A stretch of 64,000 nucleotides of DNA from positions 7,683-71,682 of the forward strand of contig DAOUJZ010000075.1 in the NCBI GenBank assembly GCA_034421955.1, given 5' to 3'. The notes beneath the pieces are model-generated. The model had not been told where the DNA came from, did no database searches, and saw only the letters and a program-made list of their open reading frames with translations. Below are positions 37,669 through 50,865 of the stretch, piece by piece. How positions within the stretch are numbered: position 1 is the stretch's first letter; every line of letters begins with the position of its first letter. The translations under genes and the position numbers were made by a program. This DNA is from Dehalococcoidia bacterium (lineage in GTDB: Bacteria > Chloroflexota > Dehalococcoidia > Lucifugimonadales > CATOSD01).

Positions 37669-38004
37669 GGGCGATTTCGGAAAAAGTGCACCATTTTGCA
37701 CCATTTGGTTGCATTCGTACTTGGGAGAGGTGGGCAGTTGCGTAACCCCGGCGGGGGTTCGTGCTCCAAAAAGGTAGGGTATTTGCTCGATTTGGGCGGA
37801 AATGGGACACGGCGTTTGTGGGCGCAAAGCCGATGTTGGGGGAAGGGTGTGGACTGACCTGCTCTCCCTATGAGGTTGTTAAGCTGCGCGGGCGTTGGCG
37901 TGGCCGGATGGGGCGGCTGGCGTCGATGGAGAGAGTGTAGTACGTGTGTTCGGGTGTGTCAAGGGCCTTCGTCCGCTTTCTGGCCCGAGTCGTTGGGGGT
38001 GAGA

Positions 38005-38038
38005 ATTATCCACGAAGGGCACGAAGCACACGAAGAGA
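38005..38038. repeat. CACGAAGG-type repeat element (copy 1)
   Basis: ATTATCCACGAAGGGCACGAAGCACACGAAGAGA, near-identical to 45351-45388. Confidence 0.8.
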
Positions 38039-38083
38039 GATGGAGGGGGAGCGGCCACCTATTTTGGAGTGGAGGTGTATGAG

Positions 38084-38245
38084 ATGCTTGCGGAGAGATT
38101 CAAACAGCAGCAGAGGATGAAGGGTAGGGAGGAAGGCCTGCAGGAAGGTGTGCAGAAAGGCGAGCAGGAGTTGGCCAAGCGTCTGCTGAACATGTCGGAC
38201 GCCGAAAGGAAGTCGGAGCTCGAGCGGATCGCGAATGGTGACTGA
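38084..38245 (+). other. 53-aa ORF resembling the C-terminal tail of Rpn/YhgA-like PD-(D/E)xK transposase-related proteins (possible gene remnant)
   Basis: My translation: MLAERFKQQQRMKGREEGLQEGVQKGEQELAKRLLNMSDAERKSELERIANGD. The EG-repeat plus RLL pattern is recalled from DUF4351-type tails. It is below the ORF-track size cutoff. Confidence 0.3.
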
Positions 38246-38387
38246 CCGCGCAATTGGACAGGAGCTCGACGCAAGTACCTCCCCTAATTGCTGTAACCGG
38301 GAGAATGGCGAACTAGTGGGATGCGGTACGGGTTGATGACTGCCCAACTGATTCAGAAAACCAAGGTGAAGATTCGTATTGCCCAAT

Positions 38388-38897
38388 TTACGTGCTCACG
38401 GAGTCCTGAGATCTTCTCAACTTCTTGAGCAATTCCTGGTTGAATGTCTTGTCGCTGAGCCGTCCACTCTCCAATCCTTCAAGGAGGCTTTCTCTAACTC
38501 GCTTCTTCAATATCCTGTGCTTGTCACCTCTGGAGACTATATCTGCCAGAGAAGTAACCTTGTTCGTTGTAAGGTACTGTAAGTCATAATGTAATCCGTT
38601 GATGGCTTCATCAGGGGTTTCACCATCCTTGTGTTCCATACTAAAGAGGGGTGGACTCAATTCTGAACCATCAAACACTACGTAATCAAAGACACCTAAG
38701 CTTTCTCTGGTAGCAGCCAGTGCTATGCTGATGCGCTCTGGGCTAAAGCCTTCAGCTATCTGCCAAATCGAGAGCATTCCATCGGAGGCTGGCAGATCCT
38801 TTAGCACATCGGCCTTGAGTTCGTTCGGCTCTAGCCAGGGTACGTCAGGACTTGTATCCCACCGTCTCTTAACTATGGCTCTCAGGAAGCTGGGCAT
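38388..38897 (-). CDS. hypothetical protein (169 aa), third gene of orphan cassette
   Basis: AT-richer ORF that overlaps the upstream gene by 29 nt. No motif recognised. Confidence 0.6.
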   Translation of the reverse strand: MPSFLRAIVKRRWDTSPDVPWLEPNELKADVLKDLPASDGMLSIWQIAEGFSPERISIALAATRESLGVFDYVVFDGSELSPPLFSMEHKDGETPDEAINGLHYDLQYLTTNKVTSLADIVSRGDKHRILKKRVRESLLEGLESGRLSDKTFNQELLKKLRRSQDSVST

Positions 38898-40131
38898 TTC
38901 TAGTTGCTGTGAGTTGATCTAGCACGAGTTGAAGGTCGTCCCGGAGCCTGTCAGACGTTTCGAGCCTTTTTGCGCGCTGGAGAGGGTATATCGCCAACGG
39001 ATCATCCATGGCAGCTATTCCGAGCGCGGCGCAATCACGTACTCCAATCTGCTCTGACCAAAGATGGTCAATCAGCAAAGACAATCGGCTCTGGCTAGTA
39101 GGATTGTGGTCGATGGCCCCAAGCTGGAGAAGACACTCCTCCTTAACGTCCGAGCTCATGTCCACGTGGGCCAGTACCCTCGCCAGTTCAACCATAGCAT
39201 CATTGCTGTAGGTCCTTATGAGGAAGTGTAGGGAACGGGAGAGCATTGACTCCATTCCATATTCAAACACTTCCTCCGATCCGTCTCGCAACGCTCTCTC
39301 AAGCTCTGACCGCACATGTTTTCGACTTAGAACATGCTCCTTAAGGTCCGTCCCAGGGATGTCCATGGGAGTGTGCATATTAACTGAGCGGAAGAAGTCA
39401 TCAGTTTGTCGGAGGTACCCAATTGAATCTGCCTTCGGACTAGATGATACGTTTGCTAGGAGACTAACGGCGTTGGCCAAAGCCGACTTTACTCTACCGA
39501 CACCGTGTTGCCATGCTGGTGAAGGAGAAGTGCCGCTTACCATGCCTTCAGTCGGATACCTAGTAACGTTCTCAATCCGGACTTCAACCTCTTCGGGTTC
39601 ATGCCAAAGGTTTAGGAGCCTCTGTTTCATGCGCCCGGCATGAGTTGCGCCCGGATTATGCGACGCCGCGATCAGCGGTCCAACTGGCCAACTCATTGCC
39701 TGGCTGGCCAGAAGACTGCAGTGAACTATGTCTCCATATGCTACAGCGGACATCTGGCTGACAGGTAGAGAGGGGCCGTATCGATCAGACTTAGCACTAG
39801 GCACCAACCAATTTGACGCGGCATTTAACCATTGTCCCGTAGATCCAATAGCATCAGCTTCCGTTTCTGGGGCTGACCTGGGAAAGTTAGGGCTATTTAC
39901 AGTTCCGAGAATGCAAACCACGTAGTCGCCCTTAACTACCTCATAGAGGTCCGCAGCAGCAACAGACTTGATCGAATCGCCTTCTCCATGAATTGGGAAG
40001 CGAGCGTCTTCGCCAAGCTCTATTGAAGGACTCCATATCTTGGACAGGACTGCGTCATCTATGTTAGTTGACGACTCGGTCGGAGGAAGCACTTGGTTGT
40101 CAACTGGGGCAGTACCAACTGAATTCATCAT
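38869..40131 (-). CDS. hypothetical protein (420 aa) with HEAT-like C-terminal repeats
   Basis: The C-terminus IGVRDCAALGIAAMDDPLAIYPLQRA resembles PBS-lyase HEAT-like repeats. The N-terminal 250 aa are unassigned. 4-nt ATGA overlap with the upstream gene. Confidence 0.6.
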   Translation of the reverse strand: MMNSVGTAPVDNQVLPPTESSTNIDDAVLSKIWSPSIELGEDARFPIHGEGDSIKSVAAADLYEVVKGDYVVCILGTVNSPNFPRSAPETEADAIGSTGQWLNAASNWLVPSAKSDRYGPSLPVSQMSAVAYGDIVHCSLLASQAMSWPVGPLIAASHNPGATHAGRMKQRLLNLWHEPEEVEVRIENVTRYPTEGMVSGTSPSPAWQHGVGRVKSALANAVSLLANVSSSPKADSIGYLRQTDDFFRSVNMHTPMDIPGTDLKEHVLSRKHVRSELERALRDGSEEVFEYGMESMLSRSLHFLIRTYSNDAMVELARVLAHVDMSSDVKEECLLQLGAIDHNPTSQSRLSLLIDHLWSEQIGVRDCAALGIAAMDDPLAIYPLQRAKRLETSDRLRDDLQLVLDQLTATRNAQLPESHS

Positions 40132-40904
40132 GCCACGTCGCCCTTTTGTGCAATCTCCTTCCCCAAAGTCACTAACTCGTCAAACAAAGCGGAGAGTTGC
40201 TCCTGTGGAAGACTTAGATATGTGGTTGCGACTGTATTGATGTCTAATTCTAAACTACCGGCAAACGCTTGGGTTACCGGAGCCGAAAGGACAGTCTCAA
40301 TAGCATTTTGGTCAGACTGTACAGCAAATGAGCCCGTTGCCTGAGTAGCGACTGACCACTTTGACAGTCGATTGATCCCAAGCTGTGGAACAACTGTTGA
40401 TTCTCGCCTACGATTGATCTGGTAGAAGAAGTCAAGAGACTTCTCCAAGTCTATAGTGACGTTGCTCAAGTATTCACTGAGCCTCTTATGAGCGTCTTGC
40501 ATGTCGCTGGCAGGTCGAACCAAAGTCGCCCCGAAAGCTATTCGTGCGACTTGGAGATCATTGCTGAACCATCGGGAAGCCATCTCGGAAAGCGTCTGCA
40601 GGGCGTCTTGGAATGACAGAGTTTGCCAGTCAGACGCTGTGGAGGGTGTGCCCAGATTCTGGATAGTTGGTTGGAGGAAGAAATCCACCCTCGGATGGGC
40701 TACGCGCATCAAGGCCGTGAGATCTGCAAGGCGTCCGACCTGCTGAAACAACCCCTCCCGTGGTCTGCGCTGTTCCTCGTCCGGAACCCCACCAATCACC
40801 GTGTCCCATATGGAGTTGGCATCGACCTCGGCCTCGGCACGTAAGAAGGTGGTAAGCCGTAGCCTAAGCGCTTGCCATTTTGTAGGCTTCGTCAAGTTAA
40901 CCAT
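40128..40904 (-). CDS. hypothetical protein (258 aa), first gene of orphan cassette
   Basis: Long uninterrupted ORF in the AT-richer segment. No confident family assignment. Confidence 0.6.
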   Translation of the reverse strand: MVNLTKPTKWQALRLRLTTFLRAEAEVDANSIWDTVIGGVPDEEQRRPREGLFQQVGRLADLTALMRVAHPRVDFFLQPTIQNLGTPSTASDWQTLSFQDALQTLSEMASRWFSNDLQVARIAFGATLVRPASDMQDAHKRLSEYLSNVTIDLEKSLDFFYQINRRRESTVVPQLGINRLSKWSVATQATGSFAVQSDQNAIETVLSAPVTQAFAGSLELDINTVATTYLSLPQEQLSALFDELVTLGKEIAQKGDVA

Positions 40905-41043
40905 CTGTTCTGCCTTCCGAGTGGCTGAAGATCAGAGTGTAGGCCAACTCGGGTTATCTGAGAGCGTCGCAAATACTACTATACAACAAATAGTTTCAAC
41001 AAGCTCAATTGAGAGGCGGGCTGTGCAAGAAAGTTCGTGGGCC

Positions 41044-42051
41044 TCACGAGGTAACGCCCGCCAACCTTGGCGGGCGTTTCGCATAGCTGTCCCTTATGGC
41101 CTGCGTCACATTCGACGACGAGGCGATCCTGTCACTCATCATGCGTCCGTTGCACCCTCGCCTGAGGATCCCGCAGACGTGATGGCCTTCGCGTCGCTGG
41201 GGAGGTCGAATCTCTCTACACCAGGAGCAAGCCGAGTTAGTGCAGGCGATGTCTCGGAGCAGGCGCACGAGTCGGCCCGCCTCCGGGAACTGGTAGCGCA
41301 CCCGCGGCGGCATCACCGAGTTGCTGCCGGAGACCGACAGCCACGCCAGGGCGTAGGCCAGCGGCCAGCCGCGTCGGGAGACGTCAGCCATCACCTCGCG
41401 TGTGTGCGTGGTGCAGGCGTTGCCGTCCAGACGGGAGTGAATTGCGTGTACAGCCTCCGCGTCCGACGGCCTCGGGGAGCGCCGCAGCACTTCGAATACA
41501 CCGTCGAAGCCGGCTCCGGCGTCGATACTGGTGAGCCAGTGCCAGGCGGTCAACAGATCCGGGTTCGTTTCGCGCAACTTCCTCTGCTGATTGGCGAAGA
41601 CCTCCAGGGTCAGCCTGGCGTCCAGCTCCGGGTCGTTGATTCGCCCACGCACGAGCTGGCCGTCCTGGTAGTGCTTCACGAGGTGGTGGTACGGGTTGCG
41701 CGGGTAGGCGAGTGGGTTGAGCATGAGGGTGTCCACGGCTGGCAACCGCAGAAGCCGCAGGTTGGGATTCGCCGCCCGCAGGTGGGGAAGATCGAACGCG
41801 ATGAGGTTGTGGCCGAGCAGGAATTGGGCGCCTTCTGCGAGGCCATCCAATTTGTCGAGCGCCGCATCGAAACTGCGGCGTCCCGCTGGAAATGTCACGC
41901 GCTCGCCGGTGTCAGGGCGTACGCCTGCGAAGGCCCGGATCCTCTTATCCTCGACGGTTACTTCGAGGTCGAGCGAGAGGCACCGGCGCAAGAGGCGTTC
42001 GCTATCGCCTGCCTGTGGCGCTCGATTCTTCGGGGACGAGGTGTTGACCAT
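41044..42051 (-). pseudogene. DEDD (DnaQ-like) 3'-5' exonuclease domain, apparent 5' fragment of a larger exonuclease-helicase gene
   Basis: LSLDLEV...LLGHNLIAFDLPHL exonuclease motifs, then a Cys cluster CTNSACSWC. After that the sequence becomes Arg/Gly-rich nonsense and ends at the compositional boundary. Confidence 0.55.
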
Positions 42052-44427: not shown

Positions 44428-45396
44428 ATGCCAAAGATCGAGTTCGACATGGAGCCGAGACCGCCGTACGATTTCGCGCTTACGGCGGCGTACGTGACGC
44501 ATTTTCAGCGCCGGTATGCGGCGGAGTCGTTCGAGGATGGGGTGTTCCGTCGGCTGCTGGACCTGGACGGCCGCGTGGCGCTGGCGGAGGCGCGGTCGGC
44601 GGGCGGGCCGGACGCGCCGCGGGTGGAGGTGTCGCTGCGGGGCGATGGCCTGGACGAGGGGTGCGTCGAGGCGGCGCGCGCGCAGCTTGCGTTGCTGCTG
44701 GGCACGGAGGACGACGTGCGGCCCTTCTACGAGATGGCCCGGGCGGACGACGCGCTGGCGCCGCTGGTGGAGGCGCTGTACGGGCTGCACGTGCCGCAGG
44801 CGGCGTCGGTGTTCGAGGCGCTCACGCTGTCCATCATCGGGCAGCAGATCAGCGCGCAGGTGGCGCGGGTGCTGCGCGGGCTGATCATCGAGACGTTCGG
44901 GCGGCGGGCGGAGTTCGACGGCGAGGACTACTGGGCCTTTCCGCGCGCGGAGGCGGTCGCGTCGGCGAGCGTAGAGGACCTGCGCGGACTGAAGCTGAGC
45001 CAGCGCAAGGCGGAGTACGTGCTGGGGGTGGCGAAGAGCGTGGCGTCGGGCGAGCTGGACCTGGAGGGCCTGCGCGGCCTGCCGGCGGGCGAGGTGGTGG
45101 AGCGGCTGACGGCGATTCGCGGCGTGGGGCCGTGGACGGCGCACTGGCTGCTGATAGGCGCGCTGGGCGAGCCGGACGGGTTCCCGTCGGGGGACCTGGC
45201 GCTGCAGCGGACGATGGGGACGCTGGTCGGCGACGGCGCGCCGATGGCGGCGGGGGACGCGCTGGCGTACTCGGAGCGGTGGTCGCCGCATCGGAGCTAC
45301 GTGACGACGTACCTGTTCGCGGCGGCGCGGGCTGCGCGGTGGCGGGAGGGATTATCCACGAAGGGCACGAAGGGACACGAAGAGGGGGAAGGCTAG
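44428..45396 (+). CDS. HhH-GPD superfamily DNA glycosylase (AlkA-like)
   Basis: IRGVGPWTAHWLLIGALG...GDLAL (HhH plus catalytic Asp). Start at ATG 44428. The last about 14 codons are encoded by a repeat element. Confidence 0.8.
   Translation: MPKIEFDMEPRPPYDFALTAAYVTHFQRRYAAESFEDGVFRRLLDLDGRVALAEARSAGGPDAPRVEVSLRGDGLDEGCVEAARAQLALLLGTEDDVRPFYEMARADDALAPLVEALYGLHVPQAASVFEALTLSIIGQQISAQVARVLRGLIIETFGRRAEFDGEDYWAFPRAEAVASASVEDLRGLKLSQRKAEYVLGVAKSVASGELDLEGLRGLPAGEVVERLTAIRGVGPWTAHWLLIGALGEPDGFPSGDLALQRTMGTLVGDGAPMAAGDALAYSERWSPHRSYVTTYLFAAARAARWREGLSTKGTKGHEEGEG
45351..45388. repeat. CACGAAGG-type repeat element (copy 2), forms the 3' end of the alkA-like ORF
   Basis: ATTATCCACGAAGGGCACGAAGGGACACGAAGAGGGGG encodes ...STKGTKGHEEGEG before the stop. 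Confidence 0.8.
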
Positions 45397-48275: not shown

Positions 48276-48797
48276 CTAAAGGCTCCGTCCTTCCAGTGCT
48301 CTGTCGCATAGGTAACTGAACGAGGCTCGAACGATTCGACGGCATTCGCTATTCAACAGGCTTACATACTCGGTCGTCCACGCATCTGAGAAGCCCTTGT
48401 CGCTAAGGGCTTCCAGCAATACATTATGGCTCGGTTTTCTGCCTATAAGCCGACTGGCAGGAACCAACACCCAGCGTGGCGTGGGGAAGCTGATGGCCAA
48501 TCCAAAGTAGCCCTCAACGCCAGGCGAGTCGATCAATGAGGCCAAATCTTCGTCCGTCAGTTGGCGCGGACGTGGGCCTAACACCTCGGCTTCAATCTCA
48601 AAGAGAAGTTCGTCCGTTCCTCCAATCGCGACAATATCTGGATGACCCGTGCGATTGATAGCTTCCACTCTGTAACCAAGTCGCAGGAGTACATGGGCGG
48701 CCAAGGCTTGCACTTTGTATCCAAACTCAGATGGCGAAACGCTCAGGCGCAGACTCTCAATACAATCTGAGGCATGGAGCGACGCTGCATCATTCAT
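48276..48797 (-). CDS. 173-aa protein with PD-(D/E)xK-like (Mrr-type) core motif
   Basis: LLRLGYRVEAINRTGHPDIVAIGGTDELLFEIEAE has a helix, strand, PD and hhhE-x-E layout. ATGAATGA overlap with the ATPase gene. Confidence 0.5.
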   Translation of the reverse strand: MNDAASLHASDCIESLRLSVSPSEFGYKVQALAAHVLLRLGYRVEAINRTGHPDIVAIGGTDELLFEIEAEVLGPRPRQLTDEDLASLIDSPGVEGYFGLAISFPTPRWVLVPASRLIGRKPSHNVLLEALSDKGFSDAWTTEYVSLLNSECRRIVRASFSYLCDRALEGRSL

Positions 48798-50865
48798 ACC
48801 GTATCTTCAAGGTTGGCCCCTCAGTGGGTGACCACCCTGTGGGCTCAACAATAACGTAACCAGCCTCGTCGAACACTTCCGGTATCATCTCCTGAAAGCG
48901 CTCCGTTTCTTGTGAGGCGACGATCAGTTGTACGTTGCGTCCAAGTTCGTGCAGGCGTTCCACTAGAATTCTTATGTGTTCCGTGTCCAGGGCTCGCGTG
49001 GGGTCGTCCAGCATGACAAGATAGACCTCGGTGGGAGTATCCTCGGTCTGGCTGAACGCAAAGTACGGCACGAGGTTCAAGGCGCTCTCTGCCTGGCCGT
49101 TCAGCACGCCCGTCGGGTCTTCCCTTCCAGGCTCCTGACTGCTGGCAACCCTTAGCTGTAGCTTAGGGAGTACAGACTCCGAGATTACCAACTGGTCATA
49201 CCACGGATGCCGTGTCAGGGCGCTGAAGGCATTTGACAGAATATCAGAGACACGAGGGATGTCTTGTGCGAGCTGTTCATTCAAGCAGGTCTCGATTGCT
49301 TCCTTAGTTGCACGAACTGATTCTCCAAAAGAAACCAAGTTGTCATAGGACGCTATAGCACGCTCAAGTTCCCTTTTGCGCGTGTATAGGCCGCTAAGGT
49401 AGCCCTGAATTCGGTGAACCCGGTTCTCTTCATTGAGTTTGTCTAGTTCGGCCTGCTTTGCTCTGAACCATTCCTCTTGGTTGTCTAGCTGAGCCTTGAT
49501 CTCGGCTTCTCTTTCAGCGTGATTCTTGATCGCCTGTTGTACGCTGCTGGTGGCGCTTAGGTTCTTCTTGTCCTCATCGTCGACAAGGTTCATCGCGTTG
49601 GCAAGATCTCGTTTTAGGGATGTCAATTCAGCGACTTGTGCATTGAGCCGACCCTTCAATTCTTGATACTGCTGAAGCTGCGATTCAAGCTCGGCCACCG
49701 AAGAAATGATGGAGTCGCCAGGGTGAGTCACGGTGTCCTGTAGAGCGGACGCCAGACTTTGTCGGTCGTGATTTGAATCGCAGATTGGGCAGGAAACCGT
49801 CTCGGATTCATCGCGCCCAATTAGCTCAATCGCGTCCTGTAATATCCGCCCCTGTATGGATTCTGTGTCGGCTTGAGCCTTCACTGCTTTGAGGCCTTGG
49901 TACAGTTCATTGGGTGTTCGGTCGCCAAGAACTGAACTCAATTCTGATTGACAGTTTTGGACACAGGCTTCTTGCTCGCTAACCTGCTTTTGACAGCGGT
50001 GCAAGGTCTCCAAGCGCTCCCGCCGGCTGGACAAATTCGTTGCCTCATTCTCCAGACTGCCTTGCTGTTGAGTACGCCTTTTTTCTAGGGAAGCGGCGGC
50101 GCTCTCAAGTAGAGCCTCCAATGACAGACCCACCAATGCTGGCGGATTGCCGGTGACTTCTCTGATGAAGTTGTTTGTCTTTTGTTCGGACGCTGAAATT
50201 GACGGTATGGGTCCGTCGCCCCACGGTGGGGCGTCTAGGATGCGCCTTCTGCGGTTCTCTTGGTCTGCAATTTGGTCATCAATGTTCTTGCGAACACCCG
50301 TGAGTTTTTCGTCTAAATTGTGCTCAGCTTCAGCTTGTTCCTTCAAGAAATCGTCAATGTTGCTGAGTAGCACACGTGGATGCGTAAGGCCGAGATAGTT
50401 GAAGACTGTTCTTTCAAATGGGTCCAAGTCCTCTGGCTGCCGACGGAGTGGAGCAGACTGGGGCGCGAAGATCACGTGTGTCCCTTCGCCCGCATTTACA
50501 GAATCGAGTTGAGGCATAATGTCCCTCAACAGGTGTCTGGTTCCACTTTGGTCGGTGAGGATTCCATCGGCTCTTCCGCGAGTTCCTAAATCCAGTGTGC
50601 GGCGCAGGGTCCATGGTTCCCCGTCGCGCATCAACTTTATCGTGACACGGCAATTGCCCGTGTATCGCTGATTCTTCACAATCTCATTGGTGCGGAACGT
50701 CGACCCAAACAGCCCCCATCGGACAGCTTCCACAATGCTGGACTTTCCGTTGCCATTTAGCCCAAGCAGAAACACGTGGCGTCCTTTGAAGTCAATCGTC
50801 TTGGGAGACGTGAACCCCTTGAATCCTTCTATTTCAACGCCTTGAACAATGAACCCGCGCGCCAT
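48790..50865 (-). CDS. Rad50/SMC/DndD-like ABC ATPase with coiled coil and CxxC hook
   Basis: Walker A LGLNGNGKSS, long heptad-rich middle with CPICDS, signature-like LNGQAES, Walker B/D-loop VYLVMLDDPTRALD. Confidence 0.85.
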   Translation of the reverse strand: MARGFIVQGVEIEGFKGFTSPKTIDFKGRHVFLLGLNGNGKSSIVEAVRWGLFGSTFRTNEIVKNQRYTGNCRVTIKLMRDGEPWTLRRTLDLGTRGRADGILTDQSGTRHLLRDIMPQLDSVNAGEGTHVIFAPQSAPLRRQPEDLDPFERTVFNYLGLTHPRVLLSNIDDFLKEQAEAEHNLDEKLTGVRKNIDDQIADQENRRRRILDAPPWGDGPIPSISASEQKTNNFIREVTGNPPALVGLSLEALLESAAASLEKRRTQQQGSLENEATNLSSRRERLETLHRCQKQVSEQEACVQNCQSELSSVLGDRTPNELYQGLKAVKAQADTESIQGRILQDAIELIGRDESETVSCPICDSNHDRQSLASALQDTVTHPGDSIISSVAELESQLQQYQELKGRLNAQVAELTSLKRDLANAMNLVDDEDKKNLSATSSVQQAIKNHAEREAEIKAQLDNQEEWFRAKQAELDKLNEENRVHRIQGYLSGLYTRKRELERAIASYDNLVSFGESVRATKEAIETCLNEQLAQDIPRVSDILSNAFSALTRHPWYDQLVISESVLPKLQLRVASSQEPGREDPTGVLNGQAESALNLVPYFAFSQTEDTPTEVYLVMLDDPTRALDTEHIRILVERLHELGRNVQLIVASQETERFQEMIPEVFDEAGYVIVEPTGWSPTEGPTLKIRYE

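Follow-up and report, generated by a model that had tools for sequence, protein, structure and literature searches.

A mobile three-gene cassette in a Dehalococcoidia genome as a candidate tripartite toxin-antitoxin-like module

The cassette and its three proteins

The window analysed here, a stretch of 64,000 nucleotides (nt) from contig DAOUJZ010000075.1 of the Dehalococcoidia bacterium assembly GCA_034421955.1, contains a cassette of three overlapping minus-strand genes that we regard as a candidate toxin-antitoxin-like module (all positions are those of the window). The genes, here called A, B and C, encode proteins of 258 amino acids (aa; A, 40128..40904), 420 aa (B, 38869..40131) and 169 aa (C, 38388..38897); A is the first and conserved component, and C is the predicted effector or toxin. 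The first-pass annotation of this DNA had described the three open reading frames (ORFs) as translationally coupled, and a check of the ORFs reproduced its overlaps exactly, with 4 nt shared by A and B (ATGA, 40128-40131) and 29 nt shared by B and C (38869-38897). Each of the three ORFs is intact and of full length when compared with its homologues.

The cassette is located on a low-GC island (~37650..~41100) that was delimited by a GC profile in 200-nt windows and by the contrast in GC content at third codon positions (GC3). GC is 0.51-0.52 between 38 and 41 kb, compared with 0.65-0.70 in the flanks, and GC3 is 0.55 for A, 0.51 for B and 0.52 for C, compared with 0.87-0.96 in four backbone genes. 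The earlier remark that this 2.5-kb block is richer in AT than its surroundings therefore holds, and in both profiles the cassette differs from the backbone. The block had also been called an orphan, which is wrong, as all three proteins have many homologues. A word-indexed search returned homologues of A in at least 288 clusters, of B in 15 and of C in 8, all of them unnamed. Profile and PADLOC searches linked the three proteins neither to a known metabolic or structural operon nor to a defence model; in PADLOC-DB v2.0.0 there was no match for A, B or C at E<=1.

A is the best-conserved of the three proteins, with a median identity of 38% across phyla. In its alignment, 16 columns are invariant and about 26 nearly so, and the conserved positions concentrate in the segments YQINRxR, INRLSKWS and ELDINT and in a C-terminal GD. 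No Pfam, NCBIfam, PADLOC or PHROG family was found for A, a profile search against PDB sequences was also negative, and the family scans revealed no helix-turn-helix (HTH), ribbon-helix-helix (RHH) or AbrB domain. The AlphaFold2 model of A is confident (pLDDT 89.9, pTM 0.87) and two-lobed; according to DSSP, the element order beta-alpha-beta4-alpha occurs twice, so that each half fits the pattern of a TBP-type helix-grip repeat, and the model places the invariant Arg, Asn, Gln, Lys and Asp residues in strand-forming segments. When the model was compared with BFVD by Foldseek, the best match was an unnamed viral protein (E 2.9e-6, TMq 0.41, TMt 0.49); VETF and TFIID/TBP-type proteins were matched with a TMq of only 0.18-0.23 (E 2.4e-5 to 7e-4). 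The corresponding search of the PDB gave nothing convincing (TM <0.3), with no match to TBP and with RnlA absent. Matches to AdoMetDC, EspG, PYL and Cas7 were rejected as noise (TM <0.3), and one to ChpT (E 0.026) was rejected as chance, being far below the cutoff. We go no further than to call A tentatively compatible with a double TBP-like/helix-grip fold.

B consists of two parts of very different conservation. Its C-terminal ~155 residues (38869..39339) form a conserved HEAT-like repeat domain of the alphaRep/PBS-lyase type, the only part that is common to all B homologues in the alignment, while its N-terminal ~264 residues (39340..40131) are a clade-specific, hypervariable extension rich in Ser and Thr (S/T-rich). 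This N-terminal region cannot be aligned; in the different homologues it is between ~50 and ~260 aa long, the version in the window being among the longest. HEAT-like repeats at the C-terminus had been recognised at first pass, and the searches bear this out: the single sequence from the window matches Pfam HEAT_2 at E 0.0065, and the family profile matches alphaRep/HEAT-like chains in the PDB at E 1.5e-25 to 1e-8, with several repeats per chain, and natural HEAT repeat proteins at E 1e-6. The likeness to PBS-lyase and alphaRep proteins, strong at the profile level, concerns only these ~155 residues. B differs from those proteins in its small number of repeats (only ~3-4), in the long hypervariable stretch ahead of them and in its fixed operon with A and C; the match implies no lyase or scaffold function.

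C is a member of a large family. A scan with its profile using HMMER gave at least 2151 representative clusters (E<=1e-3; clusters at 50% identity), nearly all of them stand-alone proteins of 155-175 aa. In an alignment of 142 diverse members, His103 is conserved in 100%, Ser43 and Asp34 in 99%, Asn100, Gly92 and Trp13 in 96%, Arg6 in 93% and Arg128 in 91%, a pattern such as would be expected of an enzyme. C matches phrog_10743 (E 2.8e-11), which is unnamed and carries no functional annotation. It belongs to no Pfam, NCBIfam or PADLOC family, has no relative in the PDB by sequence profile, and gave no match to phage genomes by tblastn.

Homologues of C also occur as cargo on small mobilizable plasmids, one of 5 kb from Enterobacter (L167:533-1733) and one of 7.5 kb from Acinetobacter (pYWS30-1-6, L168:2879-4681). 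The relationship of these plasmid proteins to C is clear (hhalign E 2.5e-18), and their partner genes are not detectably related to A or B. The triad of pYWS30-1-6 encodes proteins of 231, 189 and 182 aa; the middle one has a faint HEAT-like C-terminus (E 0.056), and a comparison of A with the first one by hhalign revealed no remote homology.

Related cassettes and the third-gene slot

A genome survey by pattern scan, with one genome per species, identified 80 loci with an A homologue in at least 15 phyla, including Chloroflexota, Acidobacteriota, Cyanobacteria, Planctomycetota, Nitrospirota, Desulfobacterota, Gammaproteobacteria, Bacteroidota and Verrucomicrobiota. By local profile searches, the complete A-B-C order is present in 43 of 79 genome loci (~15 phyla), three loci end after B, and in 33 loci A is followed by a coupled gene for a protein of ~190-260 aa and then by one for a protein of ~120-240 aa, both from other families. 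A scan of metagenomes yielded 36 A-B-C loci, a further 13 that are cut after B, and 8 variant pairs. Contigs with B homologues have the same gene order and overlapping frames, and the stop codon of A overlaps the next start codon in 154 of 162 loci (as ATGA, GTGA, TTGA or a 1-nt overlap). Whether the three genes occur together elsewhere had been named as a check at first pass; coupled A-B-C cassettes are found in many phyla, with no conserved gene beside them.

The triad has a lower GC content than its flanks in all of the 61 loci compared (mean difference 8.5 points, p=1e-11). Its neighbours are highly diverse, with 153 different Pfam families among 147 immediate neighbours (the nearest ORF on each side, from mechanical ORF calls); each of these families is found in three loci at most, and a conserved fourth gene was sought without success. 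Elsewhere, the genes next to the cassette are mostly housekeeping ones. Together with a promoter-like region of its own (described below) and with the C homologues on mobilizable plasmids, these features mark the cassette as a self-contained, mobile module. Some relatives are decaying: L026, L029, L051 and L077 show an A divided between two ORFs, a truncated B or an insertion of ~1.5 kb between A and B, which fits frequent gain and loss.

In the variant cassettes, which are led by A and lack B and C, the third gene encodes proteins of several kinds, among them known toxins. It is a PemK/MazF toxin in three loci (E 8e-17), a Fic/Doc protein with the motif HPFxDGNGR in four loci (E 5.5e-16), and a HEPN protein in a cluster of nine members (PDB HEPN match at E 1.1e-6). 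In eight other loci it encodes a protein of ~160 aa with an invariant, retropepsin-like DTG[AS] signature that has weak database support, and in two loci a DUF2934-containing protein. The family of gene 2 changes together with that of gene 3, and profile-profile comparison shows gene 2 to be unrelated to B; between B or C and the variant gene-2 and gene-3 families, hhalign detected no remote homology. In the MazF variant, the gene-2 protein ends in an acidic, Trp-containing tail, which we take to resemble the neutralising tails of the MazE type. Neither a variant cassette nor the plasmid triad with a C-like protein matched PADLOC at E<=0.01.

As MazF, Fic/Doc and HEPN proteins are found at gene 3, and as gene 2 co-varies with them, slot 3 can be assigned to an effector or toxin and slot 2 to its cognate neutraliser or adaptor, with A as the constant partner. 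The effector types interleave on the similarity landscape of the A sequences, which argues that modules have been exchanged repeatedly.

A short motif recurs in gene-2 proteins. S[ST][AT], often in the form ESST, is seen near the N-termini of otherwise unrelated gene-2 proteins, and short versions of B have it again immediately before the HEAT domain; in B of the window, ESST is located at residues 19-22 (40066-40077). Within the first 30 residues of the gene-2 proteins of all types, the motif is enriched (36 of 112, compared with 14.8 +/- 3.4 for shuffled sequences). It may represent a linear A-binding motif.

One locus departs from the three-gene arrangement. In a metagenome-assembled genome of the Microcystaceae (L043:2556-4259), a 567-aa ORF combines an N-terminal region of ~300 aa with a complete A domain. 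The N-terminal region shows, by eye, a nuclease-like D...EVK motif and has no relative in the PDB, and no gene 2 or gene 3 is found downstream. This ORF may be a single-protein version with the effector fused straight to A.

Interpretation and comparison with known systems

Of several possible explanations we favour one, at a probability that we would put at roughly 0.55: a tripartite, toxin-antitoxin-like conflict module that is widespread and horizontally mobile, with C as the putative toxin, B as a neutraliser tethered to A, and A as a sensor or regulator. In more general terms, the cassette is probably an undescribed toxin-antitoxin (TA) or anti-phage system. A new anti-phage or addiction module had been suspected at first pass, and the computational checks proposed there all favour this suspicion. 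Support comes from the recurrence of the coupled triad without a conserved gene beside it, from the lack of a match to a known operon or defence model, from the toxins found in slot 3 of sister cassettes and from the foreign composition seen at every locus compared.

C would then be a new enzymatic toxin, probably using the cluster of His103, Ser43 and Asp34, and B would be its cognate neutraliser and adaptor, with the HEAT-like C-terminal domain, a repeat of the protein-binding kind, holding C. The hypervariable S/T-rich N-terminus of B would link it to A, which would be made in a fixed ratio with B by way of the stop/start overlap. A itself is most likely the sensor or regulator that decides on the release of the B-C pair, possibly on binding a nucleic acid or some other ligand that the various hosts have in common. 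The data show directly the order, coupling and conservation of the genes, their mobility and foreign composition, the HEAT domain of B, the confident model of A, and the substitution of B and C by unrelated pairs with MazF, Fic/Doc or HEPN in slot 3; from the sequence comparisons we infer the toxicity of C, its neutralisation by B, the binding of A to B, the kind of signal that A may sense, and a pay-off in phage defence or addiction.

Nucleic acid is our leading guess for the ligand of A, because invariant polar residues are placed in strand segments and because RNA or RNA:DNA hybrids are the ligands of the TBP-like domains of RnlA and RNase HIII (PMC8266594, PMC3710099). In RnlA, an anti-phage HEPN toxin, two TBP-like domains serve RNA binding (PMC8266594, PMC3710099). 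This is an analogy and not a homology, as a comparison of the A profile with RnlA of E. coli by hhalign gave no detectable similarity (E 0.23). The A-led cassettes share with RnlA-RnlB and LsoA-LsoB the tandem TBP-like domains (tentatively, in the case of A), a HEPN effector in a subset of cassettes, and, on the favoured reading, the character of a mobile TA module. They differ in that the TBP-like domains and the (Dmd-binding) HEPN domain of RnlA are part of one polypeptide, whereas A is a separate protein that would be joined to interchangeable effectors via an adaptor; A has no HEPN domain, and no RnlB-like antitoxin is present.

Several results weigh against the favoured explanation. For C, neither a recognisable toxin fold nor membership in a recognised toxin superfamily was found, and its AlphaFold2 model, based on an alignment of 8 sequences, is unusable (pLDDT 47.8) and returned nothing in the Foldseek search. 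The TBP-like label of A is derived from the order of strands and helices and from weak Foldseek matches (the best being that to the unnamed viral protein, with none in the PDB), no similarity between the two halves of A is detectable in their sequences, and the negative comparison with RnlA points in the same direction. B and 35 variant gene-2 proteins are devoid of known antitoxin or DNA-binding Pfam domains (RHH, HTH, AbrB, Phd), the S/T motif is present in just about one third of the gene-2 proteins, and the retropepsin-like assignment in slot 3 is weak. Finally, only about five of the 147 immediate neighbours match PADLOC defence models (two type III restriction endonucleases, a type II methyltransferase (MTase II), PDC-S05 and PDC-S23), so that an addiction or TA function explains the data at least as well as a dedicated anti-phage function. 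The association of the cassette family with defence islands is weak. Local context speaks for the favoured explanation in a few places: a gene of the MTase-Mrr type (L006) or a type III restriction-modification system (L054) lies directly upstream, and in the window a LmuB-like gene is located ~8 kb away.

Compared with type II TA systems, the cassette has adjacent, overlapping genes (the ATGA and 29-nt overlaps, with overlapping junctions of A and gene 2 in 154 of 162 related loci), but a recognised toxin superfamily for C and a DNA-binding, autoregulating antitoxin in the position of B were not found.

An unlikely alternative is that the cassette is a pure addiction module, its sole function being the stabilisation of mobile DNA, with A as an autorepressor similar to omega or PaaR2 that places the concave sheet of its TBP-like fold on an operator in the promoter. 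The order of putative regulator, antitoxin and toxin matches that of omega-epsilon-zeta and paaR2-paaA2-parE2, whose antitoxins, like B, have no DNA-binding domain of their own, so that another protein must regulate the operon. A putative promoter and ribosome-binding site (RBS) region is indeed located upstream of A (40913..41008, minus strand), with a -35-like TTGAGC (41003-41008), a -10-like TATAGT (40978-40983) at a 19-nt spacing, the palindrome CTGATCTTCAG (40925-40935) and a Shine-Dalgarno sequence GGAAGG (40913-40918). The promoter-like pair, the palindrome that follows it and the RBS are common to the cassette of the window and those of L003, L004 and L006, in otherwise unrelated surroundings, although a scan of the window for the sigma-70 consensus did not flag this promoter with its 19-nt spacer. 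The weak association with defence islands and the presence of C homologues on very small mobilizable plasmids also suit a pure addiction module. However, A contains no HTH, RHH or AbrB domain, and the conserved palindrome was examined in close relatives only. Moreover, A is the best conserved of the three proteins, with its 16 invariant residues and 38% median identity, whereas operator-specific repressors of TA systems usually diverge fast. The regulators of omega-epsilon-zeta and paaR2-paaA2-parE2 are small RHH or HTH proteins, each combined with one toxin family, while A is a 258-aa protein without HTH that is combined with at least six unrelated effector families. Rather less probable is a role of A as a chaperone, as in toxin-antitoxin-chaperone (TAC) systems, in which A would stabilise the disordered N-terminal extension of the gene-2 antitoxin; titration of the chaperone would lead to degradation of gene-2 protein and thus free the toxin. 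Dedicated chaperones that engage an antitoxin have a precedent in the TAC systems (PMC10440598). In these, for example HigB-HigA with its SecB-like chaperone in Mycobacterium tuberculosis, three genes are co-transcribed as well, the conserved component pairs with different toxin and antitoxin families, and the antitoxin bears an extra, poorly conserved extension. Such a chaperone would be in keeping with one conserved partner for many unrelated gene-2/gene-3 pairs, with the long, fast-evolving, S/T-rich N-terminal region and enriched motif of gene-2 proteins, with the conserved, tight translational coupling of A to gene 2, and with the EspG secretion chaperones among the weak Foldseek matches of A. 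Those EspG matches are not significant, though (TM <0.2), A resembles SecB neither in sequence nor in fold (no SecB family match), and its invariant Arg, Asn, Gln, Asp and Lys residues would suit a ligand or nucleic-acid site more than a hydrophobic groove for a client. The gene order also differs from that of known TAC loci, as the conserved component is encoded first here and last there, the extension is N-terminal here, and the toxins here include the new family C.

Least probable of all, in our view, is that no conflict system is involved and that the cassette is a mobile accessory complex with a regulatory or stress role, or a non-functional remnant in this genome. Such an explanation would account for the lack of matches of A, B and C to any known toxin, antitoxin or defence model, for the predominance of housekeeping genes among the neighbours elsewhere, and for the visible decay of the loci with split or truncated genes. 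It is at odds with the three intact, full-length ORFs of the window, with the known toxins MazF, Fic/Doc and HEPN that fill the equivalent slot in relatives, and with a universal low-GC signature and patchy phyletic spread, which are typical of selfish or defence cargo. A tripartite TA-like conflict module remains our preferred reading. It can be extended to a more ambitious proposal, for which we would put the odds at below even: an undescribed, phylum-spanning, modular family of tripartite immune or toxin systems, in which a stand-alone, double TBP-like A would universally sense a conserved signal of an invader or of stress (for example a nucleic-acid species) and would steer interchangeable effectors, including C as a new enzyme family with >2000 clusters, via a short linear motif in hypervariable adaptors.

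The combination of one conserved component with many unrelated toxins or effectors, in a patchy and mobile distribution, is also seen in the hyperpromiscuous Panacea (PanA) TA systems and in retrons. The A-led cassettes have neither a Panacea/DUF4065 nor a reverse-transcriptase domain, no structured RNA was found in the window, and the conserved component is separated from the toxin by a co-varying adaptor gene. In its logic, the cassette resembles TAC systems, regulator-antitoxin-toxin operons, RnlAB and hyperpromiscuous TA systems; by sequence and fold it groups with none of them, as no similarity to SecB, to HTH or RHH regulators, to RnlA or RnlB, or to a PADLOC model was found. Full-text literature searches retrieved no description of a tripartite TBP-like/HEAT system.

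If the favoured reading is correct, the cassette represents a new and widely distributed three-component TA or defence architecture, and gives a first functional context to two large families, A and C, that are unnamed in the databases. Besides RnlA, it would also provide a second and independent example in which TBP-like domains are connected to toxin effectors. As effectors are naturally exchanged behind A (C, HEPN, MazF, Fic/Doc and retropepsin-like proteins), the family would offer an experimental handle on how one sensor or regulator controls unrelated toxins.

The insertion site and its surroundings

Upstream of the cassette lies the 5' fragment of a gene for a DEDDh-exonuclease/RecQ-family helicase (41044..42051, minus strand; homologous part by tblastn 41212-41994). 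Residues 20-286 of the truncated ORF match the N-terminus of genes annotated as "RecQ family ATP-dependent DNA helicase", with 60% identity to a 1720-aa RecQ-family protein encoded on a Thiothrix plasmid, and the ORF has a weak DEDDh match in PADLOC (E 4.5e-5). When this 1720-aa homologue was compared with the whole window by tblastn, only its residues 14-276 were present (at 41994-41212), so that ~1440 codons have been lost; no remnant of the remaining ~1440 residues was found anywhere in the window, which thus contains no full-length exonuclease-helicase of ~1700 aa. The last ~55 codons of the truncated ORF are a non-homologous read-through into the island edge, and the low-GC island starts ~100 nt beyond the end of the helicase homology. 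The first-pass annotation had placed the upstream boundary of the block where an exonuclease ORF degenerates, and this is where the truncated RecQ-family gene breaks off.

The exonuclease fragment was also considered as a component of the system and was rejected, as no homologue of it is found next to A in any other locus examined. It therefore marks the insertion site, and the cassette has overwritten most of a RecQ-family helicase gene. The full-length 1720-aa homologue (L086, Thiothrix plasmid pTfr153, 44052-49214 and neighbours) has a gene for a stand-alone 3'-5' exonuclease, one with a WYL domain and cas6 in its vicinity, a hint at a possible defence association of the long exonuclease-helicase family itself.

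Flanking direct repeats, tRNA genes and Rfam elements were sought as island boundaries or RNA components, and none was found. At the edge of the low-GC island, in the non-homologous tail of the truncated helicase ORF, there is a perfect GC-rich hairpin, GCCCGCCAA-GG-TTGGCGGGC (41058-41077). On the other side of the cassette, the stretch 37669-38387 had been described as a junk zone with repeat elements and a transposase-like remnant. The stretch is only weakly characterised: it includes a 58-aa ORF (38069-38245) that faintly resembles the C-terminal part of a transposase (phrog_3300, E 0.0043), and it contains one copy of a ~35-nt repeat. That element, GATTATCCACGAAGGGCACGAAGGnACACGAAGAG, occurs twice on the plus strand (38004-38040 and 45350-45386), and the two copies have an exact 19-nt core in common, for which 0.04 matches would be expected by chance. 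Between them lies a 7.3-kb segment with three backbone genes as well as the cassette and the truncated helicase gene. We regard the element as a probable dispersed intergenic repeat, not as a boundary of the island.

A second low-GC island of the same foreign composition (48276-50865, minus strand; GC3 0.55-0.58) is located ~8 kb from the cassette. It encodes a 691-aa SMC/AAA ATPase that matches LmuB of Lamassu (PADLOC E 1.7e-27) and, overlapping it downstream, a 173-aa ORF that is without a match and in which a PD-(D/E)xK-like pattern (HPDIVAI...LFEIEAEV) can be seen by eye; together they look like a Lamassu-like two-gene system. With a helicase gene overwritten by the cassette and the Lamassu-like pair nearby, this part of the genome would represent a small accessory hot spot.

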